Positions 2,479 through 18,752 are shown, counted from the first letter of the stretch. The stretch is 64,000 nt of DNA from an uncultured Candidatus Saccharibacteria bacterium (GCA_964648335.1 CAZYLZ010000006.1:3974-67973), one strand, 5' to 3'. The notes: generated by a model from the sequence alone, not told the origin. Numbers and translations: made by a program.

Positions 2479-2811
2479 CTAGTACTCGTCGTTGGTCGAG
2501 CACTCGTAGGCATCGCGAAGCTGGACGATTTCTGACGTCCAACTACAGAGCCACGAGTCTTTTCGTGCAAGCATTGTCAGTGCCGCCGTCGTGCCGGGGA
2601 TGCCATACTTGCTGGCGGCTTCCCCAATAATCTCCCGCATCATGTCGAACCATTCGTGTCTCGAGTACTTCTCGATCCTCGTGTGGTCAAACCAGCCACG
2701 TTGTGCCAAGACCTCAGCGGCGTCCACCAAGCAATCGATTCGCTCGGGGATACACGCCTTCTGGTCGCGGATGTGGGTGTAGGCGCGGGTGGCGTTCTGG
2801 TACTTGCTCAT
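2479..2811 (-). CDS. Hypothetical protein (110 aa)
   Basis: Clean ORF with no recognisable motif. Confidence 0.35.
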   Translation of the reverse strand: MSKYQNATRAYTHIRDQKACIPERIDCLVDAAEVLAQRGWFDHTRIEKYSRHEWFDMMREIIGEAASKYGIPGTTAALTMLARKDSWLCSWTSEIVQLRDAYECSTNDEY

Positions 2812-2963
2812 TTGGGTGTCCTCTCCATCCGACCAGAGCGTATGCTCGGTCTTCAGATGGCAAAGGTCTCATCAGGCTAGGCCGAGACCGTGAGGGACAA
2901 ACGAGGAGCTGACACCGACTAATATCATAGCACAGATATACGAATATTCAAATCAAACAAAAA

Positions 2964-2993
2964 ACCTCCCATACGCGGGAGGTTTTTTGTTTG
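2964..2993. terminator. Rho-independent terminator (bidirectional hairpin)
   Basis: aaaaaacctcccatacgcgggaggttttttgtttggg: GC stem flanked by A-run and T-run, downstream of the minus-strand pilin gene. Confidence 0.7.
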
Positions 2994-3003: not shown

Positions 3004-3474
3004 TTATCGAGTGACTGTGATTGCTGGCGGTGTTGGGATCGAGGTTTCGTTCAATGCCTCCGGTGCAGCTACAGTATAGCGACCATCTGCATTGACCAAG
3101 ATCGTAAACTTTGTGTCCGCACTAGCTCCGCCGGTTGGGTCTACTGGCATAACCGCCATGTAAACAGGTACGAGGCACGACTCCAGGTTTACGAGACCAG
3201 ATCCAGTACCGATTTTTCGAGCAGTACCGTCAATCGCCTGCCCGATACCGGTGCATGTGAACTGTCCCTTGTTGTCCGCAAGGTTTTGGCCTACCGCGTT
3301 TAAGATCGTGTTGACTGCCGACGAGCGCTGCGTGTTGCGTGCCTGTGCGAACTGCTTTGCCGGGTTGATAGCGATGATGACAATCGCTGCCAATATAGCG
3401 ATGATGCCGATAACGACCAAAATCTCGATGAGCGTGAAGCCGCCAGAAGCGACTGCTGACTTTACTCGTTTCAT
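3004..3474 (-). CDS. Type IV pilin / pseudopilin (prepilin N-terminal methylation motif)
   Basis: MKRVKSAVASGGFTLIEILVVIGIIAILAAIV: class III signal with G|FTLIE. Start chosen at the internal Met (3474) rather than the upstream in-frame Met of the 3004..3588 ORF. Confidence 0.8.
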   Translation of the reverse strand: MKRVKSAVASGGFTLIEILVVIGIIAILAAIVIIAINPAKQFAQARNTQRSSAVNTILNAVGQNLADNKGQFTCTGIGQAIDGTARKIGTGSGLVNLESCLVPVYMAVMPVDPTGGASADTKFTILVNADGRYTVAAPEALNETSIPTPPAITVTR

Positions 3475-3565
3475 AAGTGAATACATATCTATGCTAGCTA
3501 AATAAATTACTGACCCCGATATACCTTGCCTCCTCCCCTTCCCGCAAGTCTGACGATGTCGTCTG

Positions 3566-6500
3566 CTATGGGCTTTCACCCCACGCACCGATAACGACCG
3601 ACGGCGGTGGAGGTGGTGGAGGTGGGGGCGGTGGGGGCGTATCGTCGTTCACTATCGTGCATTGCTTCGTTTCGCCTGCGGCTATGGTTCCACTGCATAG
3701 AGGTCCGAGCGTCTTTGCGTAGCCCGCGACTCCCGGCTCTTCATCTACGGTGTAGGCCCCCGGGTCGAGCACGACCGAAACTCCCGGCGAATCGGTACCG
3801 GGAAATGTAGCCTGGCTCACGTTGGTGCCCGAGACCGTCATCGTAAAGTCCGCTGCGACCGACGATCCGGTGTTGTCGTTGACCACGTGCTTTACCACGT
3901 AGATGGTGCCCGTGGTCGGCGGCGGCGGCGGTACTATGGCCGCCGCAGGACACACCTGCGCTCCGATAAAACTAAAGATACCTTGCATGTCTGCGGACGT
4001 CGGCGAGATAAAGAAGTTGTCGCCGTCGCCGTTTTCTTGCACTACTTGGTAGTACACCCTAACCGGGATGTGATCGAGATAGAAGTCGCGCGTGTTTACC
4101 GTCGCGTTAGAAGTCACGCGCACGCGGAACTTGCTTTGGTCGAAGTCGCCCTGCGTCCAGCTGCGACCCCACGTGTCGCCACTGTTACCCAAGACACCGA
4201 CATGCGAATGTGATGTCGATTCTCCCGAGTCGGTCTTAGAAACCCAGTTGGCACCCGCGTTGTACGAGAGCTCTACGCGCAGGCTGTTCGTTCCCGTTAC
4301 CGAGTCAAGCCACCAGTTGGGCCGAACTTCGATACCGGTGATGACCGCGTTTGGTGGAACAGAGAGACCGTATCCAGAATAGACATGGCGATCCCCTGCT
4401 CCGTCGGTATTCTGCGCTGCAACGTCGTCGTCCACATACGCTTTGTCGGGACTCACCTCGAAGCCGTTGCCGTCTCCTCCCGAGTCAGCAACATTGCCTG
4501 CGGGCGACTGCAACCCAGTATCGCCGTTAATTATTCCGGTCGTGTCGAAGAACGAGCCGTCGGCGTGCGGCGCATTCGTAACGGTTCCGCTTGCCAGACC
4601 TGCCAAAAGCGCACGTCCTGCAGTAGCACCGTAGTGGATGGTAAAGATGGTCGTTCCGCTTGCTTTTGCGGCGTCGGCTGCAGAGTAGGCCTGTGCGACA
4701 GGATCGGTGACAATGCTCCAGCTCACAACCGCATACAGATGTGTCACTCGCGGTACGGTACCGCCCGACGAAGTATTGAGTACGCCAAAGTGCGTCGTCC
4801 AGTTGTTTACTTCGGCAACGGTCCATGCGCCACCTAGAGGATTAGACGACATCGTCCATGTGTAGTCCGTGTAGTTTGATGAGAGGTTGTGCCCTACATC
4901 CACGGCCTGGGTGATGCTGTTCTCTGCCACCAGCTGGATTGCACCGTTACTCCCTGCCGTCTCTTTTGCAATCGCATGCACTGTCACCCTAATGTTCGAC
5001 GCGTTTGCAGGCACGGTCGCATCGGGAAACGCATACGTCTGTGTTACCGCTCCTGCCGCGCTGTTTGATACATAGGTAGTATCGGAGTCGTTGGTAGAAA
5101 CAGCCGCTACCGACGTTCCGGTGTTTGCGATCCAGGCCGTGTATCCGCCGATTGTTTGGGACTGTACCGTCGCACTGCCGGGGATTGTGTAGTAGACCTT
5201 GGTCTGCACCTGGTCGACCGAGAGCGTCGAATTGTTGGTGCACGAAAAGCCTGGGTCTACGTTCTCGAGTCGTGCGGTAAAGTTGGTGCTGTTGATCTCG
5301 GCTGGAGTCCAGGTGCGCCCCCAGGTGTTGGTGCTGCCACCGAACACCAACACCTGATCGCTGCTGCCGAGACCCGCAACATCGTTTGCCGTGAACGTAG
5401 TGCCGTTGGGAGCCAGATCGATATCGAGCTCGCATCCAGACGAGTCGCTCGACTTGGCTTCTGCTGTAACTTCGATACCGACAATAGTCGCCGTAGGCGG
5501 CACCAGGAATCCGAAGTTAGCGTACCGTTGTCGGTGCCCTGCTACCGCGTCCGTCGCATACTGGTTGTCGCTCGTAAACGCGCGCGTCGCGTTGGCAAAC
5601 TGGTCGACACCACCTTGAGCAGTAGCTGCCGCCGGCGCATTAAACCCGACCGAGCCGGCAATCGTGTACGACACAACGGCGTACACCTGGGTTACGCGCG
5701 GAGTGGTCGCTCCTGTCGATGCGTTAAGTACACCGAACTTGTAGCTCCACGCATTCACGTCTGCCACAGTCCACGATCCACCGAACGGATCTGTCGCCAT
5801 GGTCCAGGTGTAATCGGTGTACGTACTCGACAGCGAGTGCCCCGCATCGGCAACAAGGGTTCCTGCATTTTCTGCCACCAATACCACAGTGCCTGTTGTA
5901 CCACCGGTCTCCTTGGCGATCGCATGAAGCGTCACCGAAATATTGGTAGCGCCCGCGGGAATACCGGCATTTGCCAAAAGGTATGTCTGGGCCTGGACCG
6001 CCGTATTGATATACGAGACATCGCCATCATTTGTGTTTATCGCCGTCACCTTCGTACCGTTGTTCGCGCTCCACCCGCTATAGGTACCGAGTGCCGATGC
6101 TTGCAAAGTTTGCGAACCGGGCGTCGATCCAGAAGGCTCGTTAGGATCGCCATCAGAGACGAGAATGAGTACTTTCTGTTTCGATGGATCGTGCCGCGGG
6201 CCGTTCAGTTCGTCGTTGGCGACAGTGATCGCCGCCGAAAGATCGCTGCCCACCGATGAGTTCGATCCGGTGATCGAGTTTATGGCACTTTTGACGGTGG
6301 CGTAAGCATTGCTGAGAACTCCATTAGCGGGGATTGACGCTGCTGAGCCGTTGAGTCCGCCAAAGCTGCCTGCGCCGATCTTAGGTAGTGTTACCACGCC
6401 GGAATAGAGATTCACCAGAGCTGTCGCGGCAGCATTTTCGTCAGCGCGATCGGTCGAACTCATGCTCCCCGAACGGTCGAGTATCACCACCGTATCGGCG

Positions 6501-7483
6501 CAGGCCGGCGTCGGTGGCGCCGTATCATCATAGGTGATGATACAGGTCTTGTTTTCGCCTGCCGCAAGCGAGATGGACGAGCTTCCTGCACAATGATACC
6601 CCCATGCGCTCTTGGTATAGCCTGGTACGTTCGGAGCGCTCACGGTGTGCCCTCCGGGAGCGAGCGTGTACGGCTGGCCCGGCACCCGGACCACGCCGTC
6701 GATCGAAAGCGCGAAATCTGAGACAGTGCTCGTTCCTGCGTTGTCGTTGATAACGTTAGCTATGACACTGAGCTTGGCAGTCGTCGGGATGTCGTCGTTG
6801 AGCGCAAGACATGTCTTGATCTCGCCCGCAGCGACCGTGCCCGAACAGCCGGCGCTCAGCGTACGCGTATAGCCCGAAACCGCTGACTCAGTAACTTGGT
6901 ACGACCCCGCGTCGACCGTAACCGCGACACCGGTGTCAGATCCTGCAAATGACGAAAGCGAAACTGCGGTACCGGTCACGTTCATGGTGAAGTCGGCGGA
7001 CGCATGGGTTCCGTCATCGTCGTTTACCGTCTGCGTCACGACGAAGATGGTCCCGTGCGTCGGTGACGTTGCCGGGTTTTGAACGGTTGCAGAGACCTCC
7101 ATCTCGGTGAATGCGCCTTTGTACGATGCCTTGGTATGCACGAGTGCTTTCTTCTGAGTCGCATCAATCACGGTATATGTGACGCCCGTGATAAGGCAGG
7201 TGCCGTCGCCAACACTCACCGGCACTCCGCCGAGTGCCGAATCATAGGCAGGATCGGTCATCGGCGTGTAGGTGTAATCTTTCGCGACCTTGAGGAGCCC
7301 CGCATTGACGCACGATTCGGAAAGCCCGAGCGAGATGCGCTTGAACTCCTGGTCGAGCGCGTCGAAGCGCGAGAACAGTCCGGTCGCGCTTGCCGACGAG
7401 ACGAGCCCCATGAGCACCAACGACAAAATGATCGCTGTCATGAGCGCGATGTAGCCGCGAGATCCGGTTGCGTTTTGTTTCAT
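3566..7483 (-). CDS. Giant (1305 aa) pilus-associated vWA-domain protein, GspK/PilY1-like tip adhesin candidate, with C-terminal poly-proline tract
   Basis: N-terminus SRGYIALMTAIILSLVLMGLV is pilin-like but lacks Glu5, as in GspK-type minor pilins. vWA MIDAS motif VVILDRSGSMSS ... LILVSDGDPNE. Repeated beta-rich domains. Ends with 12 consecutive Pro. It sits inside the pilin operon. Confidence 0.65.
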   Translation of the reverse strand: MKQNATGSRGYIALMTAIILSLVLMGLVSSASATGLFSRFDALDQEFKRISLGLSESCVNAGLLKVAKDYTYTPMTDPAYDSALGGVPVSVGDGTCLITGVTYTVIDATQKKALVHTKASYKGAFTEMEVSATVQNPATSPTHGTIFVVTQTVNDDDGTHASADFTMNVTGTAVSLSSFAGSDTGVAVTVDAGSYQVTESAVSGYTRTLSAGCSGTVAAGEIKTCLALNDDIPTTAKLSVIANVINDNAGTSTVSDFALSIDGVVRVPGQPYTLAPGGHTVSAPNVPGYTKSAWGYHCAGSSSISLAAGENKTCIITYDDTAPPTPACADTVVILDRSGSMSSTDRADENAAATALVNLYSGVVTLPKIGAGSFGGLNGSAASIPANGVLSNAYATVKSAINSITGSNSSVGSDLSAAITVANDELNGPRHDPSKQKVLILVSDGDPNEPSGSTPGSQTLQASALGTYSGWSANNGTKVTAINTNDGDVSYINTAVQAQTYLLANAGIPAGATNISVTLHAIAKETGGTTGTVVLVAENAGTLVADAGHSLSSTYTDYTWTMATDPFGGSWTVADVNAWSYKFGVLNASTGATTPRVTQVYAVVSYTIAGSVGFNAPAAATAQGGVDQFANATRAFTSDNQYATDAVAGHRQRYANFGFLVPPTATIVGIEVTAEAKSSDSSGCELDIDLAPNGTTFTANDVAGLGSSDQVLVFGGSTNTWGRTWTPAEINSTNFTARLENVDPGFSCTNNSTLSVDQVQTKVYYTIPGSATVQSQTIGGYTAWIANTGTSVAAVSTNDSDTTYVSNSAAGAVTQTYAFPDATVPANASNIRVTVHAIAKETAGSNGAIQLVAENSITQAVDVGHNLSSNYTDYTWTMSSNPLGGAWTVAEVNNWTTHFGVLNTSSGGTVPRVTHLYAVVSWSIVTDPVAQAYSAADAAKASGTTIFTIHYGATAGRALLAGLASGTVTNAPHADGSFFDTTGIINGDTGLQSPAGNVADSGGDGNGFEVSPDKAYVDDDVAAQNTDGAGDRHVYSGYGLSVPPNAVITGIEVRPNWWLDSVTGTNSLRVELSYNAGANWVSKTDSGESTSHSHVGVLGNSGDTWGRSWTQGDFDQSKFRVRVTSNATVNTRDFYLDHIPVRVYYQVVQENGDGDNFFISPTSADMQGIFSFIGAQVCPAAAIVPPPPPTTGTIYVVKHVVNDNTGSSVAADFTMTVSGTNVSQATFPGTDSPGVSVVLDPGAYTVDEEPGVAGYAKTLGPLCSGTIAAGETKQCTIVNDDTPPPPPPPPPPPPSVVIGAWGESP

Positions 7484-7484
7484 A

Positions 7485-7994
7485 TCATTTTCTTAGGTAG
7501 ACGACCGTTTTAAAATCTTGATCTACCACCTGTCCGGTCGGCGTTCGGGCCGAAACGGTAAAGGATGCTTCTACGCTCTCGGGGTCCGTACCTCCGCCGA
7601 AGGCATGACTGAAGGAAAGCGCACTAATCTCGACGTTATCGTTATTGAGAACGTTTGCAGTGTTCGCGCCGCGTGCAAGCGTCATGTCTGTGCCCACAAG
7701 CTGAACCACGATTGGATGTGGGATCGCGGTGTCCCACTTGGTTACTGAGAGAGACGCTCCAGTATTGCCCACTGCAGGATCATCGACGGCACGAGCACCC
7801 GAGAGTACCCAGCCGATCTTGGCGACCAAGAAATTTCCCTCTTCTTGCACCAACGAGCGCGTAACCGAACGCGTACTAGCCTCGGCGATCGAATACGCGG
7901 CTGTGACGGCGCCGCCGATGATGATACCGAAGAGTGCCATGTACATGAGCGCTTCGATGAGTGTGAACCCGCGTGTGTGAGTCTGTCGTTTCAT
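7485..7994 (-). CDS. Type IV pilin-like protein
   Basis: MKRQTHTRGFTLIEALMYMALFGIIIGG prepilin motif. Start at the internal Met. Confidence 0.75.
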   Translation of the reverse strand: MKRQTHTRGFTLIEALMYMALFGIIIGGAVTAAYSIAEASTRSVTRSLVQEEGNFLVAKIGWVLSGARAVDDPAVGNTGASLSVTKWDTAIPHPIVVQLVGTDMTLARGANTANVLNNDNVEISALSFSHAFGGGTDPESVEASFTVSARTPTGQVVDQDFKTVVYLRK

Positions 7995-7995
7995 A

Positions 7996-9483
7996 TCAGT
8001 TTGCAGTGAATACGCTAACCGATCCATTCGCTCCAGAACCCGACCCTGCATACAGGCTATTAGCCTCGCATTCGAGTGTCGTCCCAGAGTACGGCAGCGA
8101 TTTTTGCGTCACGGAGGAAATCGCTGATGGATCGCTAATGCGTAAGACTTGGAGCTTGCTTGTGGTGGTCGTCACGATAAACGCGAGCGTGTCGCGAACG
8201 ATAACGCCTGCCGCAGTGGCTCCGAGCGCGAATGCGCCTTTGGGCGCAGGCATGGCACTCGACGGGTCCTTTATATCGAGTACGTACAGCTCTTTATTAG
8301 GGCTCGAATATGTCCGCCCAAAGTAGAGATCGTCGCCGACGGCAAAGAGGGATCGTCCGAGTCCCACGCCGCCCGGGTTGTACACAGCACCCGGAGCCAC
8401 GACCGGATTATAGGGATTACTGATATCGAGCACCACGAGTTGCTTGGTGTTATCGTCGGTTGCAAGGTATGCGTAATTGTTGCGGATAGTTATTGCCGTA
8501 ACGCTCCTCCCCACTGCATAGCTTCCGCGTGCGACTGGAAACAAAGGATTGTGAACATCAATGATATGGAACTCCGGACCGCTCCCGGTCTTGCCAAGTC
8601 CAAGATAGAGATATCCGTTCTTGTATGCGACACTCACGCCACGGCCTTGTCCGCCGGTCCCGGTGACGCCCGGCGCCTTGTAAAAATACTTCACCGTCGG
8701 ATTCGAAGGAACCGAGACGTCGACGATTTTGAGCTGCGAGCATGCGCCGCCATATACGGTCGATGCATTCGAGAGATCGTCCGGGTTGAAGCACGATCCG
8801 AAGTTGGCTCCGTGCCCGTCGGCGACATAGGCGTAGTTACCTACGACTGTCACCATGGCGGGACCTGCGGTAGTTGACGTCGCGATATCGACAGATCCGA
8901 GCACGGTCGCGAGGCTCGATGTCGCGTAGATGAAGAAGTTCGGCAAGTTCTGCGATACGGTTTGCGCAAGCCCCACATATACCTTCCCGAACGCAGCATC
9001 GATCGTGCTCACTGGTCCCTGCATCGCATAGTCAGTTTGAGAGGGGTTTGTCCAATCCCCGGTCAAGACCGAGTCGCAGGTGTCGCTCGATTGCGCTGCA
9101 GAAAAATTAGAGACGAGCGAAGAGAGGCGCACGAACTGCCCTGTTCTACCGTAGCTACCGATCCAGGTCACGTTCGCCGTGATCTCTTTGCTCAGGAGGT
9201 CGCCGAGCGTTCTCACCGACAGCGTTTTAGTGTAGGTGATGGGCCCCAACACTTCGGTCGTGGTCGTCGGAACCAGGAGCTTGAAATCCTTGCGCGCTGT
9301 TGCCTGTGCGTTCTCGATCATCGCCTGTGAAATCCCAAGCGCTTCTGATTGAAGTTCGCCGTCGGTGCCCACTCCCTCGGCGCCGTACACGACCATGGCG
9401 ACTGCCGAGATCGACATCACCATTATGGCCATGGCAATCAATACCTCGACTACAGTGAATCCGTAAGATGCGTTTCGTTTCAT
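7996..9483 (-). CDS. Minor pilin/pseudopilin with beta-propeller-like repeat domain
   Basis: MKRNASYGFTVVEVLIAMAIMV prepilin motif, followed by repeated YAYVADG/YLYLG/YAYLATDD/LYFG beta-propeller-like motifs. Confidence 0.7.
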   Translation of the reverse strand: MKRNASYGFTVVEVLIAMAIMVMSISAVAMVVYGAEGVGTDGELQSEALGISQAMIENAQATARKDFKLLVPTTTTEVLGPITYTKTLSVRTLGDLLSKEITANVTWIGSYGRTGQFVRLSSLVSNFSAAQSSDTCDSVLTGDWTNPSQTDYAMQGPVSTIDAAFGKVYVGLAQTVSQNLPNFFIYATSSLATVLGSVDIATSTTAGPAMVTVVGNYAYVADGHGANFGSCFNPDDLSNASTVYGGACSQLKIVDVSVPSNPTVKYFYKAPGVTGTGGQGRGVSVAYKNGYLYLGLGKTGSGPEFHIIDVHNPLFPVARGSYAVGRSVTAITIRNNYAYLATDDNTKQLVVLDISNPYNPVVAPGAVYNPGGVGLGRSLFAVGDDLYFGRTYSSPNKELYVLDIKDPSSAMPAPKGAFALGATAAGVIVRDTLAFIVTTTTSKLQVLRISDPSAISSVTQKSLPYSGTTLECEANSLYAGSGSGANGSVSVFTAN

Positions 9484-9484
9484 A

Positions 9485-9973
9485 TCAGTGGGTCCAGGCG
9501 ATCGTACCTTCGACGCCGAATGTGATGGTTGATGATGATATCCCGTCGGTGATGGCGACCTCGGTGCCGGAAGGATACGTAGTGACGTCACCCGAGAGTG
9601 TATCGAAGACGACGTCAGAAACCGGACCTGAGAACGATACCGGGTACTCGGGTACGGTCACGATATCGACTGCTGTGTCGCGCGCTGCATACGACGTACC
9701 TTGAAAGAGTACATACTGCCCTCCTGACAGGTGCACACCGTGCGCCTTTCCAGCAGTACAACCCGTACCGAGGCAAATGTTGTTCATGCTCTCGGCGCGC
9801 GCTTTGTGGATCATCGCGACAAGCTTGTCACGTTCGCCGCGCAGCGACGATTTGCGGAAGGTATCCATGCCGACGAGCATGCTCATGCTACCGATGATAC
9901 CGACGAGCCCCATCACAACGAGAAGCTCAATCAGTGTGAAGCCGCCGGTGCGGACCAGACCTCTCCTACTCAT
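9485..9973 (-). CDS. Type IV pilin-like protein
   Basis: MSRRGLVRTGGFTLIELLVVMGLVGIIG prepilin motif. The start abuts the pilC stop. Confidence 0.75.
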   Translation of the reverse strand: MSRRGLVRTGGFTLIELLVVMGLVGIIGSMSMLVGMDTFRKSSLRGERDKLVAMIHKARAESMNNICLGTGCTAGKAHGVHLSGGQYVLFQGTSYAARDTAVDIVTVPEYPVSFSGPVSDVVFDTLSGDVTTYPSGTEVAITDGISSSTITFGVEGTIAWTH

Positions 9974-9974
9974 C

Positions 9975-11255
9975 TTAGCCGTGCAAGCTTTGCGTAATGC
10001 CATAAATAGGAGTGATGATCGATACCGCGATGAATCCGACGAGAAGCCCCATGAAGATCATGAGCAAAGGCTCGATCAGTGTGGAGATATCTTTGGCGAA
10101 GTCGTCGACTTCGTTCTCGTAAAGGTCCGAGAGGTAGAGGAGCGTGTTCGAGAGGTTACCCGTCTTCTCACCAACTGCTACAAGTTGGGCGAGGATGTCG
10201 GGAAAGACGTTGCGATGGGCTGCCAGGTAAGTCGACATCCGCTCGCCGCGGTTGATCGTGTGCGCAAGCGCGCGGAAGTGTCGCTTGTAAACCAGATTCT
10301 GCGAAGTATCTGCGGTCAGGGGAAGTGCTTCTGACAAGGTGACGCCACCCTTGAGCATGATACCGAGCGTGCGCGTCGCGTTTGCAAGATTGTAGTACTG
10401 CACCATCTTTCCGACGAGAGGAATTTGGAGCAGGAATCCATGGAAGTACATGCGACTCGCCTTGTTCTTCTTGATGAGGATCGAGAAGGCGGTCACGAAA
10501 AGAACTATCCCCGCGGATAGCGCGAAACCACTCTTCTGCAAGAAATTGCTGATTGCTATGACGATCTGAGTCGACATTGGCAAGGTCATGTGGAGGCTCG
10601 AGAAGATCGGCATAATCTTCGGGAACAGATAGACCATGAGGAAGATCGTTATGCCGACAGTCGCCGTCGTGATGAGCGCCGGGTACACCAACGCACCGAT
10701 CACCTTGCGGCGGAGGATCTGCTTCTTCTTGAGTTCGTCGGCAAGATAGTCGAGGTTCTCGCTCAATACCCCGCTCGACTCACCCACTTTTATGATGTTG
10801 ATCGCAAAATCACCGAACACGTGCGGGAATTTTCCGAAGCTTTTGGAAAGCGCCTGGCCCTGCGACGTGTCTTCTATAATTTGGTCAAGTATGCGGCGGT
10901 GGCTGCGGGTGCGCGATTGCGTGCGCAAGATATGGAGGCTCTCGAGCATCGGAACGCCTGCTCGGGTAAGGAATGAAAGACGCTTGGCAAAGAATGTCTG
11001 CTCTTTTATAGCGAGTCGCGGCGCGACATACTGATCCATCATCATCGCGAGCCTGGTGAAGCGAGACCGGTCGTCATAGCTACGCTTTACCGGAAGCGCT
11101 TTCGGTTCGTCGGGCTCGGGTTCGGTCGGGTCGGTGGGATTGCCGGGCAGCTTCGGGAAGAACGAGAGCTTGGCCGGCTGTCGTCGTACTCGCTCGCCCG
11201 CTATCGAAAACAATATGCGAGCGATGTTCTCGAAGGGTGCGGTTGCGATGTTCAT
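9975..11255 (-). CDS. pilC: Type IV pilus assembly platform protein PilC / GspF family
   Basis: Two GspF-type repeats with polytopic membrane segments, 426 aa, directly downstream of the ATPase gene. Confidence 0.8.
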   Translation of the reverse strand: MNIATAPFENIARILFSIAGERVRRQPAKLSFFPKLPGNPTDPTEPEPDEPKALPVKRSYDDRSRFTRLAMMMDQYVAPRLAIKEQTFFAKRLSFLTRAGVPMLESLHILRTQSRTRSHRRILDQIIEDTSQGQALSKSFGKFPHVFGDFAINIIKVGESSGVLSENLDYLADELKKKQILRRKVIGALVYPALITTATVGITIFLMVYLFPKIMPIFSSLHMTLPMSTQIVIAISNFLQKSGFALSAGIVLFVTAFSILIKKNKASRMYFHGFLLQIPLVGKMVQYYNLANATRTLGIMLKGGVTLSEALPLTADTSQNLVYKRHFRALAHTINRGERMSTYLAAHRNVFPDILAQLVAVGEKTGNLSNTLLYLSDLYENEVDDFAKDISTLIEPLLMIFMGLLVGFIAVSIITPIYGITQSLHG

Positions 11256-11256
11256 A

Positions 11257-12504
11257 TTATTCGTGAATGACGCGTAATACCTCCTCGAGCGTTGTGAGAC
11301 CTGCCTCGACTTTCTTGAGTCCGTCGTCGAACATCGTCGTCATACCGTTCTTTATGGCGATATTTTTTATGTCTGCCGACGATGCACGCGCGAGGATCGC
11401 CTCACGGATCTCGGCATCGGCGACGAGCACCTCGTTGATACAGAGACGTCCGGAATAGCCGCTTCCATTGCAGGAGGCGCAGCCCGCTCCGCGGTGAAGC
11501 TTGGTCTTAGGGTCGATAGTACGGCCGGTCGTGAGCAAGAGATGCTCGCGCAAGGCGTCGGTGAACTCGGTCTCTTCCTTGCAGTCCGAGCAGATTTTGC
11601 GCACGAGTCGCTGGCCGATCGCGATGGAGACCGTCGTCGCAACCAAGAATCCTTCGATCTTCATGTCCAACAGACGTGGAATGGTCGTCGCCGCGTCGTT
11701 GGTATGTACGGTAGAGAGAAGGAGGTGTCCGGTGAGCGCTGTATTGACCGCGATACCAGCGGTCTCGGCATCACGGATCTCGCCGACCATGATGACATTT
11801 GGGTCCTGGCGCAAGATACTCCGAAGACCATTGGCAAACGTAAGCCCGGTGCGTGCGTTAACTTGTATTTGCTCTATGCCGTCGACGGAATACTCGATCG
11901 GGTCTTCGATGGTGATGATGGAAATGTCCGGCGACTTGAGCATCCGCACCAGCGTATACAAGGTAGTCGTCTTTCCCGATCCAGTCGGACCAGTCGCGAG
12001 AATCATGCCGGTCGGCTTCTTGATTGCCTGCAAGATCTTGCGTTTGTCTTCGGGACTGAACCCAAGGTCGTCGAGCGTAAAATCTTCGGCATTGCTCGAA
12101 AGGAGGCGCAGCACCGCATTCTCTCCGTGATACGTAGGACAAATCGAGACACGGATGTCGATGAAGGCTGTCTCGCCCATAGTGTGCCGGATGCGGCCAT
12201 CTTGTGTAGCGTTGTGCTCGTCAGTGCGTAACGATGCGAGAACTTTTATACGCGAAATAACCTCGCCGTGGATCTCTTTAGGCAAGAGGCACACCTGTTG
12301 CAACACGCCATCGACGCGAAAGCGGATGCGGACGCCTGTAAGGCTCGGGTCGATATGGATGTCTGAGGCGCGCATCTCGCTCGCCTTCTCGATGATGGCA
12401 TCGACGACATTTATGATGGAGCAATTGATTCCCCGAGCAAGCTCGAGGTCGAGTTTGCTTATGAGCACGTGCGAATTTATTTTTGGAATTACGGTATCCA
12501 TAGC
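11257..12504 (-). CDS. pilB: Type IV pilus assembly ATPase PilB/GspE family
   Basis: Walker A GPTGSGKTT, a tetracysteine CSDC...CASC zinc motif typical of GspE/PilB, and a GSPII N-domain. Start could be 12504 or the upstream Met at 12588. Confidence 0.8.
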   Translation of the reverse strand, partial: AMDTVIPKINSHVLISKLDLELARGINCSIINVVDAIIEKASEMRASDIHIDPSLTGVRIRFRVDGVLQQVCLLPKEIHGEVISRIKVLASLRTDEHNATQDGRIRHTMGETAFIDIRVSICPTYHGENAVLRLLSSNAEDFTLDDLGFSPEDKRKILQAIKKPTGMILATGPTGSGKTTTLYTLVRMLKSPDISIITIEDPIEYSVDGIEQIQVNARTGLTFANGLRSILRQDPNVIMVGEIRDAETAGIAVNTALTGHLLLSTVHTNDAATTIPRLLDMKIEGFLVATTVSIAIGQRLVRKICSDCKEETEFTDALREHLLLTTGRTIDPKTKLHRGAGCASCNGSGYSGRLCINEVLVADAEIREAILARASSADIKNIAIKNGMTTMFDDGLKKVEAGLTTLEEVLRVIHE

Positions 12505-12646
12505 GTGCAGAATTCTGTCGTAGCGGCCAATCAGACAGCGGAAATTTGCTGTAGGACATTTATACGCCCAGAGGGCCTCTACCCGCAACCAAAAACGCGT
12601 GGTTTGCTATGCGAAAGGTGGCGCAAAACAGCACTACACCACGCTT

Positions 12647-13765
12647 CTAACGAATGACAGAAACGGCCGACTTGAATGCTTCGAGTGATTCGGGACTCGA
12701 GTTGACACGCCAATCTTTTTCTTTGTTGGCATTAAACCAGATCCACGCGACAACGTTGTATCGAGCCATCTGTGTCGAGAGCGCGTCTGTAATCCACGCG
12801 GGCTTGTCGCTTCCCGGTGCACTCGCGATGGAAAACACGTAGATAGGCTTGCCATAATGGCGCAGACGAAAGAGCATCTTCGAGAATAACGACTCGAAGT
12901 CTTGCCACGGCCGCGCGAAATTGAACCCATCTACCCCCACCACATCGACGTATGCGTCTCCTGGATAGTACGCGGCGATATCGTTTTCGGGCGTATCGGG
13001 ATTAGGTTCTTGGTTCACCGCCCAGCCCCAGGTGATGTTGTGCGGTCCCTGCGACATGACGACATCGTGCGTGTGTCGCCAGGCAAACACGAGCTTTGCA
13101 GCGGAGTTACCCGGATGCACTCCGCTCCACGGACTATCGACTAGGTTCATCTCGTGAAAAGGGGCAATGAGAATCGGGTCGCCATACTCGATGGCATCTC
13201 GTGTGAAGGAGCGCATGTAGTCATCCCACTTTCCCGCGATAATGTCGTCGAGACTTCCCTGCGGTTCCCAAAATACGACGAAGGTCTTCGTACTGCCTTT
13301 GAGCGATTGTACGATTGTTTTCGGAAATGCATCGCCGAACGCGACAAAATACGCAGAAAGATTTGCTGTGTGACCAACCAATGATTCGAATCGCGCTAGG
13401 TCCCCTACGTTGTCGCCTGCATAGACACCCCAGCGGTGTGGCTGCTCGGTACCGTATGTAATCTGAGGATCGAGAGGCTTAGGTGGATTCATGACGATGG
13501 AGTTTGTAATGTTAATCGGTACCGAATGACCCAGTGTCGTTGTAGATGGGTCAGGTTGAGCGAGGGTGGTCGGACCCGCTTCGATCGTAGCATTCTCAGT
13601 CGCCGCGGTAGACGCAAGTGCCACTGCCTGCTCAGAGAGAATGCCATCTACCTTCGGCAAATTGTCACTTGAGTCGACCGAACTGAGCCAGTAGGCGCCG
13701 CTAGCTACGAGCATACACGCGGCGAATGAACCCAACACCAAAATCCGCCCACGAATATGATTCAT
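12647..13765 (-). CDS. Secreted TIM-barrel glycoside hydrolase-like protein (GH26/GH5-like, HEMN motif)
   Basis: Signal/TM N-terminus, FHEMN acid/base-like motif, WEPQG motif. A clear nucleophile motif was not found, so the family is tentative. Confidence 0.35.
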   Translation of the reverse strand: MNHIRGRILVLGSFAACMLVASGAYWLSSVDSSDNLPKVDGILSEQAVALASTAATENATIEAGPTTLAQPDPSTTTLGHSVPINITNSIVMNPPKPLDPQITYGTEQPHRWGVYAGDNVGDLARFESLVGHTANLSAYFVAFGDAFPKTIVQSLKGSTKTFVVFWEPQGSLDDIIAGKWDDYMRSFTRDAIEYGDPILIAPFHEMNLVDSPWSGVHPGNSAAKLVFAWRHTHDVVMSQGPHNITWGWAVNQEPNPDTPENDIAAYYPGDAYVDVVGVDGFNFARPWQDFESLFSKMLFRLRHYGKPIYVFSIASAPGSDKPAWITDALSTQMARYNVVAWIWFNANKEKDWRVNSSPESLEAFKSAVSVIR

Positions 13766-13796
13766 AGGCGGATTGTAACAAATTAAGGATGTGATG

Positions 13797-14819
13797 TTAC
13801 TGAAGCGTCGCGGTCTCGCTAAAGTGCGCTGCGCAGGATCCGTTGTTAAACACGGGACCGCTCGCTACCACATAATTCGACGCAGGATCCTTGATGACGG
13901 TGTGCAGATCGGTGACCGCGTCTTCGCAGGCATAGACTGCCGACTGGCTGGCACCCTGACCTCCGACCCAGATGTCGAGCCATGGATGGCCCTGGTAGCC
14001 GGTGTGGCACGGACCGTTTTGCGGGCTGTTGCCGTCTCCACAGGTGTCCTCGACGATAAAGTACCGGTGCAGGAATGGCATGTAGAAGATGGTTCCTGCA
14101 GGGTAGTCGAGGGTGTCTTTACCTCCCGAGATACTGTGACCTACCGCGACTGTTATCGGATCGGCATAGGTACCCATTCCTCCGGCGCTCGAATGGATCT
14201 TGCCATTGGATATGGCACCTCCGGCTGGTGTGTTGTCGGGCCAGCCGTAGCCGGTTATGTAGGCGGTCATGACCGATCCTGCGGGCTTCTGCACTACAGG
14301 CGCAGGAACGGTCGAGGGCGACGCAACAACGGGCTTTGGCGTAGCGACTGGTTTCGGCACGACTGTCACCGGCACTGGAGTCGATACTGACGCGGGCTGC
14401 ACTTGTGCGCAGGTTGGCACGACGACGGTTACGATCTTCGAATAACTGGCACGACGATTACTAGTATATGTCTTGACTTGGTATCGATAGCTTCCGGCTC
14501 CAGCCTTTACCGTTTCCGAGAAACCTGCGGACGGCTGCTTGCTCGACTTGTTTACCCACGAGCCAGTGCCGGGGTCCTGCCTGAACACCGAATAGGAAGT
14601 TGCATTGGTAACGGCGGGCCATGTGAGCGAGACTTTTGCGGTTCCGCTTGCGCAGCTCGCCGCAGCGGTGAGCGTGAGCTTGTTAGAAGAATATGTTTGC
14701 GCGTATGCATTGTCTGCAGTGACTGCTAACATCGACGGGTTGATAACTCCTAGAATAATCCACGCTGCTGGTACGAAGGCAGCAATAACCCACATAGTCT
14801 GGAATGATCGATGTGTCAT
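13797..14819 (-). CDS. Secreted FN3-like + 3D-domain (MltA-like) protein, cell-wall-remodelling candidate
   Basis: Signal peptide. C-terminal YITGYG..GTYADPITVAV..YFIVEDTCGDG..HPWLDIWVGG matches the three-Asp pattern of the 3D domain. Start set at MTHRSF (14819). Confidence 0.5.
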   Translation of the reverse strand: MTHRSFQTMWVIAAFVPAAWIILGVINPSMLAVTADNAYAQTYSSNKLTLTAAASCASGTAKVSLTWPAVTNATSYSVFRQDPGTGSWVNKSSKQPSAGFSETVKAGAGSYRYQVKTYTSNRRASYSKIVTVVVPTCAQVQPASVSTPVPVTVVPKPVATPKPVVASPSTVPAPVVQKPAGSVMTAYITGYGWPDNTPAGGAISNGKIHSSAGGMGTYADPITVAVGHSISGGKDTLDYPAGTIFYMPFLHRYFIVEDTCGDGNSPQNGPCHTGYQGHPWLDIWVGGQGASQSAVYACEDAVTDLHTVIKDPASNYVVASGPVFNNGSCAAHFSETATLQ

Positions 14820-14933
14820 ATAATTACCGTATCTTTTCAGACGCACCGGCACAACAACCATTTCACGCGCGCTTCATAAAGCAACCGAATTGCTTCACGG
14901 TCAATTATTTTCTTTTTCTGACGCACGAATGCG

Positions 14934-17900
14934 TTACGGATTCATCTGTGCGAGCCCCTGCTTCATCGTGACGACCGGGATGCCGTTTGCGACAAGATAG
15001 TTTACGTAGGTCTGGAAGTCTTCAGGAGTTGCTCCGTACTGATCGTTCTGATGATCGATCTGGTGGTACATGAGGATGAGCCACGTGTGGTTTGTCATCG
15101 CGGTCTCCGTCCACTGTTGCCACGTCGCAGCAGTCGTCGATGCATTCACCTCTTGTATCATGAGCTTGTACTTGTCGGTGGCCTTGTTGTTGTAGCCTTG
15201 GTCGACAGTGCGCGCAGCGACGTAACCGGCACTCTTTACAATCGCATCAGTGGTTGCGTTGTAGTCTCCATACGGATAGACGAAGGTATCTGCTGGCGTG
15301 ATGCCGATAGCATTGAGGTCTTGCTTAGCTCCGAGGATCTCGTCAGTAGCCGACGCTGCCGACAGGGTCGTCAAAAACGGATGCGTACGGGTGTGCGACG
15401 AGACTTCGTGGCCCGAAGCGAATATCTGCTGGACCTGCGCGGTGTTCATGTAGTCCTGCGCGATGTCGAGGTGAACGTCGTCGACCGTGAGTGATCCTGC
15501 CGTCGCGATCTTGTGATACACAGCCACGGTCTTGGTGTTAGCAGGCGGAATGAAGGTAAATGCCGCAGTCGCCCAGACAGCCGATGCTGGCACGGTACCG
15601 AGGTCTACCGTCTGCGTCGTGTTGTTCGTGAGTGTGTAGCGGACTGACACCGTGGTCGGGACCGTCGCCATGTAGCGATCGGTGTAGTTGTGCGCCTCGG
15701 CAGAAACGAGCGTCATCTCGTCAGGTTGCCACTGCGCACTGCCGCTCGCAAGCGATGCAACATCGATCTTGACGGCTTTCGCTCCCAGAACTCCGGCGAC
15801 CGGGTACGTGAAGGTCGTGGTGCTGACACCGGTCTTGATCGCAGTCCAGTTCGCTGGCGTCGTCGACGAGAGTGCGACTTCGAATGATGGATTATCGACG
15901 CGATTCTGGTTGATCGCCTCCTGCATCGACTTGGTGATGATAAAGAAGCTTCCTTTGAGACCAGCAGCATTCAGCATCTGATAGGCCGTGTCGTACTGCG
16001 ATCCCCATCCGTCGTCGAAGGTTATCGTGACGAATCCAGCGGGGAAACCATTGGGCCCCGGATCGATCGTCGAAGCCGCCTGCAGCCGAAGCGCCGCATT
16101 ATCGATAGTCAGCGAGCCGTTGCCGTTGATGAGGTGGAAGATGGTGACCTTGGTGCTCGATGCCGGCGGCGTAAACGCCTGCAGTACCGACGTCCAGCTT
16201 GCCGATGGCGCGATGTTGAGCGTGATATCCGAGTAGACGAACGAGTTATCGGAAAGTGTGTAGCGTGCGGTCAGGGTCGAGGTTGCGGTAGAGGTGTACT
16301 GGTTCGAGTATTCGTAGACCTGGCCGGGCGTTACCGCGACGTCCTCGAAGTACCATTTCGCATCGCCGTCGGTTCGGTTAGCCATCGAGACCGAAGCGGC
16401 AGCCGCGCCGTCGATACCCGCTACCGGGTAGCTGAAGGTTGTCGAGCTCGTACCCCAACCGCCCTGGAACCAGTGGTCGGGCACACCCACGACAGTCGCG
16501 GTCTCGAGCGACGGATTCTGAATGAGGTTTGGATTCTGAGGAGTCGGTGGGATGTAGAAGGTATTGAAGGTGACGGTCGACGCGTTGCCGATGTTGTTGG
16601 CAGCATCGGTCGCATATGCAGTGATCGTGTGCGAGCCATTCTTGAGAGCCTTGATCGGAATCTGCACGGTGTAGGGAGCTGCTGTAAGCTCTCCGACGAT
16701 GTGGTCGATACCGTTCGTGACTTCGTAGTGCACCGCAGTAACGGCGACGTTGTCGCTTGCCGCAAAGATGAGTGTCGTCGTCGCTGCCAGGATGGAACCG
16801 GTCGTCGGCTGCGTAATTGATACGACAGGTGCTTGCGTGTCGGGTATCGGATTGTTGACGGTAACGGTGATCGGAGTCGTCGATGCTGCGTTGTTGGCTG
16901 CGTCCTTGGCCTCTGCATAGACCGTGTGCGATCCATTAATAAGTGCCGTCGTGTCGAAGGTCATCGAATACGGCGCGGTCGCGTCAACTCCGTACGACGC
17001 ACCATCGACGAAGAACGTGACCTGCGTCACCGCGACATTGTCACTTGCTGTTGCCGTGAGCGATGTAGAAGTACCGACGACGGTTGCGTTAGCGGTTGGT
17101 GATGTCAGGGCTACAGTCGGCTTGGTTGTGTCTGCAGTCGTCGTCGAGTTCGATACGGTGAATGTCGCGGTGGTAGAGGTACCGATGTTCCCTGCGGCGT
17201 CGCGCGCCTGTGCGTACACCGTATGCGAACCGTTTGTGATTGATGTGGTGTTCACCGAGAGTACGTACGGAGCGGTCGTCGATTCGACTCCGAATGGTAC
17301 GCCATCGACGATGAAGCGGACTCCTGCGACAGCAACGTTATCCGAAGCGGTCGCCGAGAACGATGCTGTGCCGGAGAGGGTCGCACCCGAGGCTGGCGAC
17401 GTAAGCGCTGCGAGCGGCTTGGTGGAGTCAGGCGTCGAGGTCGCGCTGCCGGGGGCAGTGAGTGATGCGTTGTCGATTGTGAGCGTACCTACCGCGTTAA
17501 GTCCATGGAAGACGGTCGCCTTTACCGTGCCTGCGGGCGGCGTGAAGGTCCGTGTTATGTGTGTAAATCCGGAAGAAGCAGGTGCGGCACCGAGATCGAG
17601 ATAACTGTAGGTCGGCGTCGCGGTCTCGTATTGTACGGTGACGAAACTCGAACCGGTCGACTGGTAGTCGTCCTGGAAGGTATAGGTCGTGCCTGGGGTG
17701 ACAGCAACCGGCGTAAAGTACCACTTCGCGTCTCCCGAGGTGAATGCCGTGACCTGGAGCTTTGCGCCATTACCGGCCGCACCCGCCGACGGATACGTGA
17801 ATGTGCGAGTAAGCGTACCCCATCCACCCTGTGCCCAACCCAAGGGCAACGCTCCGTTTGCCGTCTCGAACGTGCCGTTGGTTATGAGATTGGATCCACT

Positions 17901-18752
17901 CGGAGGCACGACAATGACGTTGGAAACAGTGACCGCGACTGATGCCGAGGTCGCGTTATTTGCCGATGTATCGCGTGCTCGTGCAGTGATGGCATGCGCA
18001 CCGTTGGCGAGCGACGCGGTGTTAAGCGAAATGGAGTACGGCGCCGACGTGTCTTCGGCTCCCGTTGCGACACCGTCCACCAAGAACTGAACGCCAGCGA
18101 CCGCTACGTTGTCCGCAGCATTTGCCGAGAGTGTTACCGTTCCCGAGATCGTGGCACCTGCAGTTGGAGCAGTCACCGATACCGTAGGAACTACGCTGTC
18201 GGTCGATGTTGCGTTCGACGTTACCGAGGCGTTATCGATCGTGAGCGTACCTACCGACGACAGTCCGTGGAAGACAGTCGCTTTCACGACGCCAGCCGGA
18301 GGTGTGAACGTGCGCGTGATATGTGAAAACCCTGCCGAGGCGGGCGCGGCCGTAAGCGAAGCATAGCTATAGACCTGTGCTGCTGTCTCGTACTGAATCG
18401 CAAGGAAACTCGAACCGGTCGACTGGTAGTCGTCCTGGAAGGTATAGGTCGTGCCTGGGGTGACAGCAACCGGCGTAAAGTACCACTTCGCGTCTCCCGA
18501 GGTGAATGCCGTGACCTGGAGCTTTGCGCCATTGCCCGTCATTCCGGGAGCGGGGTACGTGAAGGTCTTGGTGTTAGTTCCCCATCCGCCCTGTGCCCAT
18601 CCTAGGGGCAGCGCTCCGTTTGCAGTCTCGAAGTCGCCGTTCACGACGAGGTTTGCCGCTGCAGTTGCTGCGAACGGATTAATGAGGATAAAGCCAGCGA
18701 TGGCGGTGAGGACCAGGAGCCCTACGAGACTTGCTCTGAGTGCGCGGTTCAT
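14934..18752 (-). CDS. Giant secreted polysaccharide deacetylase (CE4/NodB domain) fused to multiple CBM-like and Ig-like domains, IcaB/PgaB-like
   Basis: C-terminal NodB motifs FVTITFDDGWGS, GHEVSSHTRTHP, ILMYHQIDH. Several NLVVNGDFE..GGWG carbohydrate-binding-module-like domains. Repeated Ig-like domains (TVSVTAPTAGATISGT..). Signal peptide. Confidence 0.75.
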   Translation of the reverse strand: MNRALRASLVGLLVLTAIAGFILINPFAATAAANLVVNGDFETANGALPLGWAQGGWGTNTKTFTYPAPGMTGNGAKLQVTAFTSGDAKWYFTPVAVTPGTTYTFQDDYQSTGSSFLAIQYETAAQVYSYASLTAAPASAGFSHITRTFTPPAGVVKATVFHGLSSVGTLTIDNASVTSNATSTDSVVPTVSVTAPTAGATISGTVTLSANAADNVAVAGVQFLVDGVATGAEDTSAPYSISLNTASLANGAHAITARARDTSANNATSASVAVTVSNVIVVPPSGSNLITNGTFETANGALPLGWAQGGWGTLTRTFTYPSAGAAGNGAKLQVTAFTSGDAKWYFTPVAVTPGTTYTFQDDYQSTGSSFVTVQYETATPTYSYLDLGAAPASSGFTHITRTFTPPAGTVKATVFHGLNAVGTLTIDNASLTAPGSATSTPDSTKPLAALTSPASGATLSGTASFSATASDNVAVAGVRFIVDGVPFGVESTTAPYVLSVNTTSITNGSHTVYAQARDAAGNIGTSTTATFTVSNSTTTADTTKPTVALTSPTANATVVGTSTSLTATASDNVAVTQVTFFVDGASYGVDATAPYSMTFDTTALINGSHTVYAEAKDAANNAASTTPITVTVNNPIPDTQAPVVSITQPTTGSILAATTTLIFAASDNVAVTAVHYEVTNGIDHIVGELTAAPYTVQIPIKALKNGSHTITAYATDAANNIGNASTVTFNTFYIPPTPQNPNLIQNPSLETATVVGVPDHWFQGGWGTSSTTFSYPVAGIDGAAAASVSMANRTDGDAKWYFEDVAVTPGQVYEYSNQYTSTATSTLTARYTLSDNSFVYSDITLNIAPSASWTSVLQAFTPPASSTKVTIFHLINGNGSLTIDNAALRLQAASTIDPGPNGFPAGFVTITFDDGWGSQYDTAYQMLNAAGLKGSFFIITKSMQEAINQNRVDNPSFEVALSSTTPANWTAIKTGVSTTTFTYPVAGVLGAKAVKIDVASLASGSAQWQPDEMTLVSAEAHNYTDRYMATVPTTVSVRYTLTNNTTQTVDLGTVPASAVWATAAFTFIPPANTKTVAVYHKIATAGSLTVDDVHLDIAQDYMNTAQVQQIFASGHEVSSHTRTHPFLTTLSAASATDEILGAKQDLNAIGITPADTFVYPYGDYNATTDAIVKSAGYVAARTVDQGYNNKATDKYKLMIQEVNASTTAATWQQWTETAMTNHTWLILMYHQIDHQNDQYGATPEDFQTYVNYLVANGIPVVTMKQGLAQMNP
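17644..17771. repeat. 128-nt exact intragenic duplicate (copy 1), within a ~390-bp diverged CBM-domain duplication
   Basis: Identical to 18405..18532. The flanking ~130 bp on each side are similar but diverged. Confidence 0.85.
18405..18532. repeat. 128-nt exact intragenic duplicate (copy 2)
   Basis: Identical to 17644..17771. Confidence 0.85.

Follow-up and report, generated by a model that had tools for sequence, protein, structure and literature searches.

What does a compact type IV pilus operon display on the cell surface when one of its pilin genes encodes a protein of 1305 amino acids (aa)? This question is raised by a 64,000-nucleotide (nt) stretch of DNA from an uncultured Candidatus Saccharibacteria bacterium (GCA_964648335.1 CAZYLZ010000006.1:3974-67973; hereafter the window, meaning the whole stretch analysed). 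ORF calling in the window (ORF, open reading frame) shows seven tightly packed, co-directional ORFs on its minus strand, running from 12504 to 3004. We read the locus as a compact, monoderm-style operon for a type IV pilus (T4P), from a Patescibacteria genome that is probably one of Paceibacteria. In this reading the giant protein, which lacks the glutamate at position 5 (Glu5) of a canonical prepilin, is an apical cap pilin carrying an inserted block of adhesin domains, and forms part of a tip complex for attachment. We put the probability of this reading at roughly 70%.

A seven-gene type IV filament cassette

An earlier reading of the window, made by a model from the sequence alone (the sequence-only reading), had described pilB, pilC, four pilin genes and a gene for a giant protein with a von Willebrand factor A (vWA) domain. 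All seven genes were recovered as described. The ATPase matches Pfam T2SSE over profile positions 7-370 of 370 (ORF 11257-12588, E=2e-121), carries a Walker A motif (GPTGSGKT) and a C-terminal CxxC...CxxC motif, and is 56-70% identical across the syntenic loci presented below. In NCBIfam, the ATPase and the platform protein are closest to GspE/PilB (488 and 467 bits) and GspF/PilC (289 bits for GspF), with every score under its equivalog cut-off. The N_methyl model scores above its gathering threshold in four proteins (ORFs 9485-10003, 7996-9591, 7485-8051 and 3004-3588), all of which read G/FT(L/V)(I/V)E, the slash standing after the Gly of the prepilin signal. For three of these the probable start lies inside the longest frame, at ~9483 for the propeller pilin, ~7994 for the J-slot pilin and 3486 or 3474 for the last pilin. 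With a T2SSE-type ATPase, a T2SSF-type platform protein and pilins bearing class III signals, the locus has the components of a type IV filament system, and the evidence supports assigning the cassette, with its five pilin-like proteins, to that class.

The pilins differ in character. The H-slot prepilin has a weak GspH-like match at its N-terminus only (NCBIfam) and keeps its position in 24 loci. The I-slot prepilin bears LVIVD repeats (E=6e-17 on the longest ORF, 7996-9591; E=3.6e-17 in three stretches on the trimmed protein) that are predicted to form a beta-propeller, in agreement with the sequence-only reading, and it is 24-45% identical in the syntenic loci. The last pilin shows weak N-terminal matches to GspG, ComGC and PilA (NCBIfam), is the best-conserved pilin of the cassette at 45-59% identity across those loci, and is preceded by an intergenic gap of ~80 nt. 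Judging from this conservation and the gap upstream, the last gene most likely encodes the major pilin. Directly 3' of it lies an intrinsic terminator, seen by eye and absent from the pattern-scan output, which closes the pilus operon.

At the other end of the pilin genes, the 3' end of the platform gene overlaps the first pilin gene by 29 nt (9975-10003). Exactly the same overlap occurs in distant relatives (L001, 6728-6756; L002, 6923-6951; L004, 7594-7622), which implies conserved translational coupling and an unusually long pilin leader of ~21 residues.

Conservation of the cassette across Patescibacteria

Encoding contigs were looked up and a single genome of each species was scanned. In 24 Patescibacteria loci the seven genes (ATPase, platform, pilin, propeller pilin, pilin, giant, pilin) stand in identical order wherever the contig allows. 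The metagenome-assembled genomes concerned are labelled Paceibacteria/Paceibacterota, Parcubacteria, Doudnabacteria, Nealsonbacteria, Yanofskybacteria and Minisyncoccia; a few third-party annotation records carry other, unchecked labels (Saccharibacteria, Gammaproteobacteria). In the protein collection ~54 relatives, 817-1661 aa long, were found for the giant protein, those nearest to it at full length being only 43-45% identical; in the 24 loci the giant protein holds a fixed slot as the fourth of four minor-pilin genes. Since the same genes recur in the same order, the pilin repertoire, which had been thought unusual, is on this synteny the standard repertoire of the lineage and not idiosyncratic.

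A pilin-like module without Glu5

The giant protein begins MKQNATGSRG/YIALM, with Met at +5 and no Glu. Throughout its family a short basic leader precedes a Gly that is invariant in 50 aligned sequences and in the wider family. The Gly is followed by [YF][IV]AL[MI], thus by an aromatic residue, and by a 20-residue hydrophobic stretch; position +5 is M, I or L, never Glu. We modelled residues 1-1200 with AlphaFold2 (AF2) from a 50-sequence alignment (mean predicted local distance difference test score, pLDDT, 85; predicted template modelling score, pTM, 0.42). The N-terminal module (N-module) is predicted as a helix (residues 9-68) followed by strands (86-135) at pLDDT ~80-92, the "lollipop" of a pilin, and G10, A13, L14, R39, K48, C58 and C96 are invariant in the family. 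The pilin-like, Glu5-less N-terminus proposed by the sequence-only reading is thereby borne out, with four strands behind its helix.

Its affiliation by sequence is another matter. The full giant protein gave no N_methyl, T2SSK or PilX_N match at E<=0.01 (Pfam, NCBIfam) and nothing at all in NCBIfam, and a profile of the N-module together with 18 members found no pilin family at E<=10 in Pfam and nothing among PDB sequences. Membership of GspK or PilX by sequence, including the family sense of the earlier label "GspK-like", was therefore rejected. When the N-module was aligned with the other pilins of the cassette by hhalign, its Gly-aromatic pair and alpha1 helix fell in register with the J-slot and last pilins, but weakly and without significance (E=0.003, probability 11-17%). 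Overall probabilities were 2-17% against the H-slot, J-slot and last-pilin alignments and 0.5% against the propeller-pilin set, which held one homologue only.

What the protein does have is a basic leader, Gly at -1, an alpha1 without Glu5, a predicted pilin fold and the last place among the minor pilins. These properties support calling it a K-slot cap pilin by function and position, not by family. From GspK and PilX, an apical subunit is expected to lack Glu5, having no N-terminus ahead of it to neutralise. Prepilin peptidase would be expected to process the giant protein after the Gly.

A vWA head split by beta-sandwich domains

Chunked self-comparison, used because whole-protein BLAST self-comparison gave the identity match only, and the AF2 model agree on the layout of the rest of the giant protein. 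Two stalk domains follow the N-module; the internal repeats 137-231 and 233-321 resemble residues 1185-1283, where a third stalk domain, 52% identical to residues 137-230, lies. Between the stalk domains the predicted vWA domain was confirmed by Pfam (VWA, 30.7 bits, cut-off 23.8; VWA_2, 31.3 bits, cut-off 27) and by Foldseek against the PDB, which returned vWF-A3 (root-mean-square deviation 3.2 Å over 124 columns, TM(target) 0.48-0.49) and also factor B. Its motifs are D336-R-S338-G-S340 (DRSGS), G412-S413-D414 and D444; D336, R337 and S340 are invariant, and D444/G445 are conserved in at least 90% of sequences.

In the model, four beta-sandwich domains of the jelly-roll type interrupt the vWA domain as insertions. 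Sandwiches A (455-611) and A' (768-924) are 55-60% identical to each other, and B' is 30-38% identical to B (612-767). The later parts of the vWA domain appear as alternating helices and strands at 928-976 and 1157-1182, and the region of residues 925-1184 also holds a family-conserved FFISPTSADM...CPAA. Searched with the whole model, Foldseek matched the sandwiches to reelin repeats, Cry1A protoxin, GH101, CBM22 and viral jelly rolls, while A and B have no Pfam family and no PDB sequence match.

A proline linker and a conserved terminal strand

According to the sequence-only reading, the giant protein ends in a homopolymeric run of 12 prolines encoded by a slippage-prone GGN repeat. The 12 prolines are present, but eleven residues (SVVIGAWGESP) follow them. 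The codons of the run are mixed (CCC CCA CCG CCC CCA CCT CCA CCA CCT CCA CCG CCG), the longest run of C/G is 5 bases, and Tandem Repeats Finder (TRF) reports an imperfect 9-nt period of 3.2 copies with a score of 44, below the default threshold; the tract is neither the homopolymer nor the perfect repeat of a simple-sequence contingency locus. Nor is the tail unusual. In 53 of the 54 relatives the very C-terminus reads phi-x-phi-x-x-(G)SW-x-E-x-P, and a Pro-rich segment of 5-19 residues stands before it. A run of seven prolines is the most frequent (22 of 54), the family range is 3-15, and the longer runs (15 Pro in L007 and L012, 12 in L024) are always written in mixed codons. Since the linker is conserved family-wide with runs of 3-15 Pro, the tract reads as a conserved protein linker of unexceptional length and not as a switch.

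We therefore reject phase variation, in which slippage in the tract would switch or tune the adhesin, as highly improbable. The imperfect 9-nt periodicity and the difference in linker length between species would fit it, but slippage by 9 or 3 nt would keep the frame, and with 11 codons between tract and stop even a frameshift would spare every module except the terminal strand. A search of metagenome contigs for near-identical flanking DNA gave 0 matches in which tract length could be compared for polymorphism.

Beyond the linker, the W and E of the terminal motif are invariant in the 50-sequence alignment, and in a full-length model of a 952-aa homologue (P0037) the motif (residues 943-951) is a beta strand at pLDDT ~82, with the Pro linker below 50. 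We searched a profile of the N-module (A2) against a library of 1.84 billion proteins, cluster representatives at 50% identity, and obtained 2335 representatives at E<=1e-3 and 1100 at E<=1e-10. Among the best 150 matches, 79 are no longer than 200 aa, and 51 of these 79 carry both the N-terminal G[YF][IV]AL and the terminal W-x-E motif. The minimal members, at 130-170 aa, comprise simply the N-module and the terminal strand, joined by a short linker. One of the short members (P0102) ends ...NISILSWQENP, and in others (P0107, P0131 and P0150, for example) only a tight turn separates strand 4 from the terminal motif, which reads ...NFVVSQGTWQEVP in P0107. A 315-aa member (P0083) has one jelly-roll domain at this place. 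At one locus (L036) a bare 160-aa member occupies the slot of the giant protein itself, after a propeller pilin 45% identical and a J pilin 43% identical to those of the window.

Because the bare pilins combine the module with the same terminal strand, the simplest reading of the ~1145-aa adhesin block (residues ~137 to ~1282) is that it was inserted into a cap pilin, after strand 4 and before the last strand, and SVVIGAWGESP would be that last strand. The split vWA domain, the eleven conserved residues past the Pro tract and the apparent insertion of the block in a pilin fold had all been overlooked in the sequence-only reading.

Lengths in the N-module family form a continuum from 130 to more than 1600 aa (P0083-P0218, for example P0088, P0089, P0096 and P0105). 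The loop before the terminal strand is apparently filled with different numbers and kinds of domains according to lineage, and some members may be fragments at contig ends.

A proposed tip complex and its alternatives

In the mechanism that we propose, the PilB-type ATPase and the PilC-type platform would draw pilins from the membrane into a growing polymer. Between pilC and the last gene, four proteins are encoded that would form the priming and tip complex, with the Glu5-less 1305-aa protein as its first, apical subunit. The neighbouring minor pilin would add the LVIVD propeller, and the last gene would supply the major pilin, growing beneath the tip complex. The giant protein would be a small cap pilin (alpha1, four strands and the terminal strand) with its insert of ~1145 residues after strand 4. 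Its chain would run out through two SpaA_2 stalk domains, pass through a vWA head of the MIDAS type (metal ion-dependent adhesion site) with four nested jelly rolls, and return through the third SpaA_2 domain and the rigid Pro linker, a return strap alongside the stalk, before SVVIGAWGESP closed the pilin sheet. Such a tip would present a metal-dependent protein-binding site and lectin-like modules to a putative ligand on a host cell or surface. Attachment of this kind is the most likely function by analogy, because of the precedents of S. sanguinis PilB and Saccharibacteria PilX1 and PilX2. The tip-adhesin role suggested by the sequence-only reading is still the best reading of a protein that has the slot and properties of a cap pilin and a vWA domain with DxSxS.

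Several points weigh against this reading. The pTM, 0.42 for both models, makes the relative placement of domains unreliable. No pilin family matches the N-module significantly by sequence, and what argues for a pilin is its predicted fold, its leader motif and its gene position. The bare family members are the ground for taking the pilin sheet, and no other domain, as the partner of the terminal strand. Of the MIDAS claimed earlier, the DxSxS motif and the conserved D444 are present, but the fourth position is Ser413 (family consensus G-S-N) and not the usual Thr, and positions 4 and 5 are assigned by motif analogy only. Among the window ORFs of at least 150 aa run on Pfam there is no prepilin peptidase (PilD, Peptidase_A24) and no PilT, PilMNO or secretin, so processing and retraction are unsupported here. 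A prepilin peptidase is also absent from the flanks of L001-L005, and may be encoded elsewhere in the genome.

Some of these points would suit a giant protein that stays outside the filament, held by an uncleaved signal anchor as a membrane-tethered adhesin, or as a base or priming factor, and co-expressed with the pilus. The missing N_methyl, PilX_N and T2SSK matches, the missing Glu5 and the lack of a peptidase gene in the window all agree with this arrangement, and Saccharibacteria PilX1 and PilX2 likewise have no predicted PilD signal (PMC11623550). We nevertheless consider it unlikely, given that all 50 sequences and the wider family share a Gly at -1 behind a basic leader, that the predicted fold is a pilin lollipop and that the protein keeps its slot between canonical pilins in 24 loci. 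Bare members of 130-170 aa would make no sense as adhesins, and GspK and PilX lead one to expect the absence of Glu5 at the apex. A different doubt concerns the cassette as a whole, which might build a Com-like or T2SS-like pseudopilus (T2SS, type II secretion system) for DNA uptake or export in place of adhesion. The minimal set of ATPase, platform and pilins recalls ComG operons, there are weak matches to ComGA, ComGB and ComGC alongside the GspE, GspF, GspG and GspH matches under their cut-offs, and no PilT was found in the window. All Com and Gsp equivalog scores are, however, far under their cut-offs, and two minor pilins that carry ~190 kDa of modules (stalk, vWA, jelly roll, propeller) are ill-suited to a short piston spanning periplasm or wall. 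In the TM7x strain of Saccharibacteria, moreover, T4P-2 mutants kept wild-type competence (PMC11623550). We regard a pseudopilus as quite unlikely and keep to the pilus with an adhesive cap.

Comparison with known systems

One close precedent is PilB of S. sanguinis, a modular pilin in which the vWA module is the adhesin (Raynaud et al. 2021, PMC8179133); phyla in the CPR (Candidate Phyla Radiation) abound in modular pilins, some of them with LVIVD (IPR013211) (PMC8179133). Like PilB, the giant protein would place a vWA/MIDAS adhesin on a type IV pilin module, probably at the tip of a monoderm-type T4P. PilB has a canonical IPR012902 signal and a C-terminally grafted vWA domain, whereas the signal of the giant protein is non-canonical, without Glu5 or N_methyl, its block of ~1145 aa holds eight domains and apparently sits before the last pilin strand, and its vWA domain is itself split by four jelly rolls. 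If a modular pilin is defined, after Raynaud et al., by an N-terminal IPR012902 and a C-terminal graft, the LVIVD pilin of the cassette is one. The giant protein has a pilin-like module with no IPR012902 or N_methyl match and modules that are apparently inserted and not appended. Because its signal is non-canonical, its family would escape a census that requires N-terminal IPR012902.

GspK also carries a foreign domain inserted in its pilin beta-sheet (PMC8179133), and the topology of the giant protein resembles it. Like GspK and PilX, the giant protein is a fourth minor pilin encoded after the machinery genes and lacks Glu5, and its apparent insert in the sheet is GspK-like. It differs in having no detectable sequence relation to T2SSK or PilX_N and in the nature of the insert, an alpha-domain in GspK and a beta-rich adhesin body here. 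Unlike those systems, too, the organism of the cassette would have no outer membrane or secretin (none in the window). Of the set found in diderm type IVa pili (PilQ, PilMNOP, PilT) the window gave no Pfam match, its sole PilM_2-like match being FtsA. In those diderm pili, PilY1/PilC displays a vWA domain and a beta-propeller at the tip together with the minor-pilin complex, a likeness to the arrangement proposed here. PilY1, in contrast, is one protein, not a pilin, and its propeller is of the PilY1 type, whereas vWA and LVIVD propeller are here part of two separate pilins. The cassette proteins have no Neisseria_PilC/PilY1 (IPR008707) Pfam match, and the propeller is of the LVIVD type on a canonical prepilin.

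Among Patescibacteria, the T4P-1 and T4P-2 pili of TM7x combine a small major pilin with large minor pilins bearing lectin-like or propeller modules, as the cassette does. PilX1 (jelly roll) and PilX2 (propeller) are the large minor pilins of TM7x; neither has a predicted PilD signal, and host binding requires PilX2 (PMC11623550). In TM7x the propeller sits on a non-canonical pilin, the extra domains are described as C-terminal, and no vWA or SpaA_2 is reported. That work concerns the class Saccharimonadia, and our comparison uses the descriptions of PilX1 and PilX2. The Pam pilus of the CPR (bioRxiv 10.64898/2026.03.03.709456), also considered, is unrelated, with Ig-folds, donor-strand exchange and chaperone-usher-like factors against an ATPase, a platform and prepilins in the cassette.

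The adhesin body itself resembles the tip adhesins of sortase pili, SpaC of L. rhamnosus and the RrgA type, which have a CnaB/SpaA-like stalk and a vWA head with inserted beta "arms". RrgA has a nested-domain topology. Foldseek on the P0037 model returned SpaC (6m48/6m3y, E ~5e-4 to 8e-4). SpaC and RrgA are LPXTG sortase substrates and are covalently polymerised, whereas the giant protein has no sorting signal and sits on a type IV pilin module.

Patescibacteria T4P, modular pilins that bear a vWA or LVIVD module, and cap pilins lacking Glu5 are already known. As far as full-text searching shows, the literature on CPR/Patescibacteria pili does not describe the strictly conserved seven-gene cassette, the large pilin family invisible to standard models, a terminal-strand "clasp" taking insertions of up to ~1500 residues, or the doubly nested architecture (jelly rolls within stalk and vWA within pilin) that places a sortase-type tip adhesin in a type IV pilin. 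We suggest tentatively, at a little less than even odds, that N-modules form a large unrecognised class of Patescibacteria Glu5-less cap pilins, whose C-terminal strand (phi-x-phi-x-x-SWxExP) is a clasp that leaves room for as little as a tight turn or for over 1100 residues, and whose tip covalently recreates a PilY1-like combination of vWA and propeller in a host-recognition organelle of Paceibacteria. The design rule would be an insertion-tolerant cap pilin closed by its terminal strand. N_methyl, PilX and GspK models miss the N-module class, and censuses of modular pilins are probably undercounts.

A life attached to other microbes is assumed for Patescibacteria, and host recognition outside Saccharibacteria is almost unknown. 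From genome to genome, the two largest subunits of the strictly conserved cassette vary chiefly in their adhesin modules, which makes it an obvious candidate determinant of host specificity. If the suggestion is true, it would provide a host-recognition organelle for Paceibacteria, whose hosts and attachment mechanisms are almost unknown.

Table 1. Features of the pilus cassette and segments of the giant protein, with positions in the window. A slash follows the Gly of each prepilin signal.
Feature	Position	Strand	Remarks
PilB/GspE-type assembly ATPase	11257..12504	(-)	readable from TTG at 12588; ATG at 12504 is the probable start
PilC/GspF-type platform protein	9975..11255	(-)	Pfam T2SSF E=4e-56, two stretches
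Minor prepilin 1 ("H" slot), 172 aa, ...RTGG/FTLIELLVV	9485..10003	(-)	N_methyl E=2e-5
Minor prepilin 2 ("I" slot), ~495 aa, MKRNASYG/FTVVEVL	7996..9483	(-)	N_methyl E=7e-5 and LVIVD
Minor prepilin 3 ("J" slot), ~169 aa, MKRQTHTRG/FTLIEAL	7485..7994	(-)	N_methyl E=2e-6; position conserved
Giant vWA protein, 1305 aa	3566-7483	(-)	Pfam VWA, VWA_2, three SpaA_2 stretches
Giant residues 1-136, Glu5-less pilin module (predicted)	7076..7483	(-)	60-residue helix and 4 strands; C58, C96 invariant
Giant residues 137-321, two SpaA_2 (prealbumin/CnaB-like) stalk domains	6521..7075	(-)	Pfam SpaA_2; all-beta in model
Giant residues 326-454, N-terminal part of Rossmann-type vWA	6122..6508	(-)	Pfam VWA, VWA_2; motifs
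Giant residues 455-924, jelly-roll (carbohydrate-binding-module-like) sandwiches A, B, A' inserted in vWA (predicted)	4712..6121	(-)	repeats, Foldseek
Giant residues 925-1184: mid vWA (925-1012), sandwich B' (1013-1147), last vWA strand and helix (1148-1184) (predicted)	3932..4711	(-)	
Giant residues 1185-1282, third SpaA_2 stalk domain	3638..3931	(-)	best Pfam SpaA_2 stretch 1193-1270
Giant residues 1283-1294, 12-Pro linker	3602..3637	(-)	mixed CCN codons
Giant residues 1295-1305, SVVIGAWGESP, conserved terminal strand (predicted)	3569..3601	(-)	phi-x-phi-x-x-S/A-W-x-E-x-P
Candidate major pilin, ~156-160 aa, ...ASGG/FTLIEILVV	3004..3486	(-)	N_methyl E=2e-5
Intrinsic terminator CCTCCC-GCGTAT-GGGAGG and T run, A run before	~2954-2982	(-)	read directly from sequence

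Surroundings of the cassette

The rest of the window holds housekeeping genes: gyrA, IF-2 (503 aa), ftsA, ftsZ, glmS, S1 and tRNAs. IF-2, at 27901-29412 (+), is only 503 aa long. Gene content of the small-genome style and many large surface proteins fit Patescibacteria; the G+C content of 51-59% is high for the group.

Directly upstream of the cassette, positions 12647-20292 (minus strand) encode a GH26-like protein, a 354-aa protein without assignment, a 1272-aa protein with Big_7 and polysaccharide-deacetylase domains, and a GT2 glycosyltransferase. In L002 (15484-18219) and L004 (18262-24077), too, genes for a GT2 and/or a polysaccharide deacetylase are found no more than ~10 kb from the cassette, which suggests that the pilus cassette is recurrently linked with a surface-polysaccharide locus.

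Further along, a 692-aa protein (20615-22693, plus strand) has a long low-complexity (GGGGD/GGGD)n stretch followed by about six tandem repeats of ~90 aa (C-x-[IL]-S-A-x-P...LxWSSxNAxSAxL) and no Pfam match. Two adjacent secreted PG_binding_1 proteins are encoded at 24425-26490 (minus strand), one of which has a weak match to SpaA_2, the stalk domain shared with the giant pilin. Just downstream of the pilus operon, a 110-aa ORF without assigned function (2479-2811, minus strand) has a promoter-like site ahead of it (2951-2924; TTGAAT-16-TATGAT, upstream TG) and a strong terminator with a 10-bp stem behind it (2471-2447). By these signals, the region 2447-2951 reads as a separate transcription unit.

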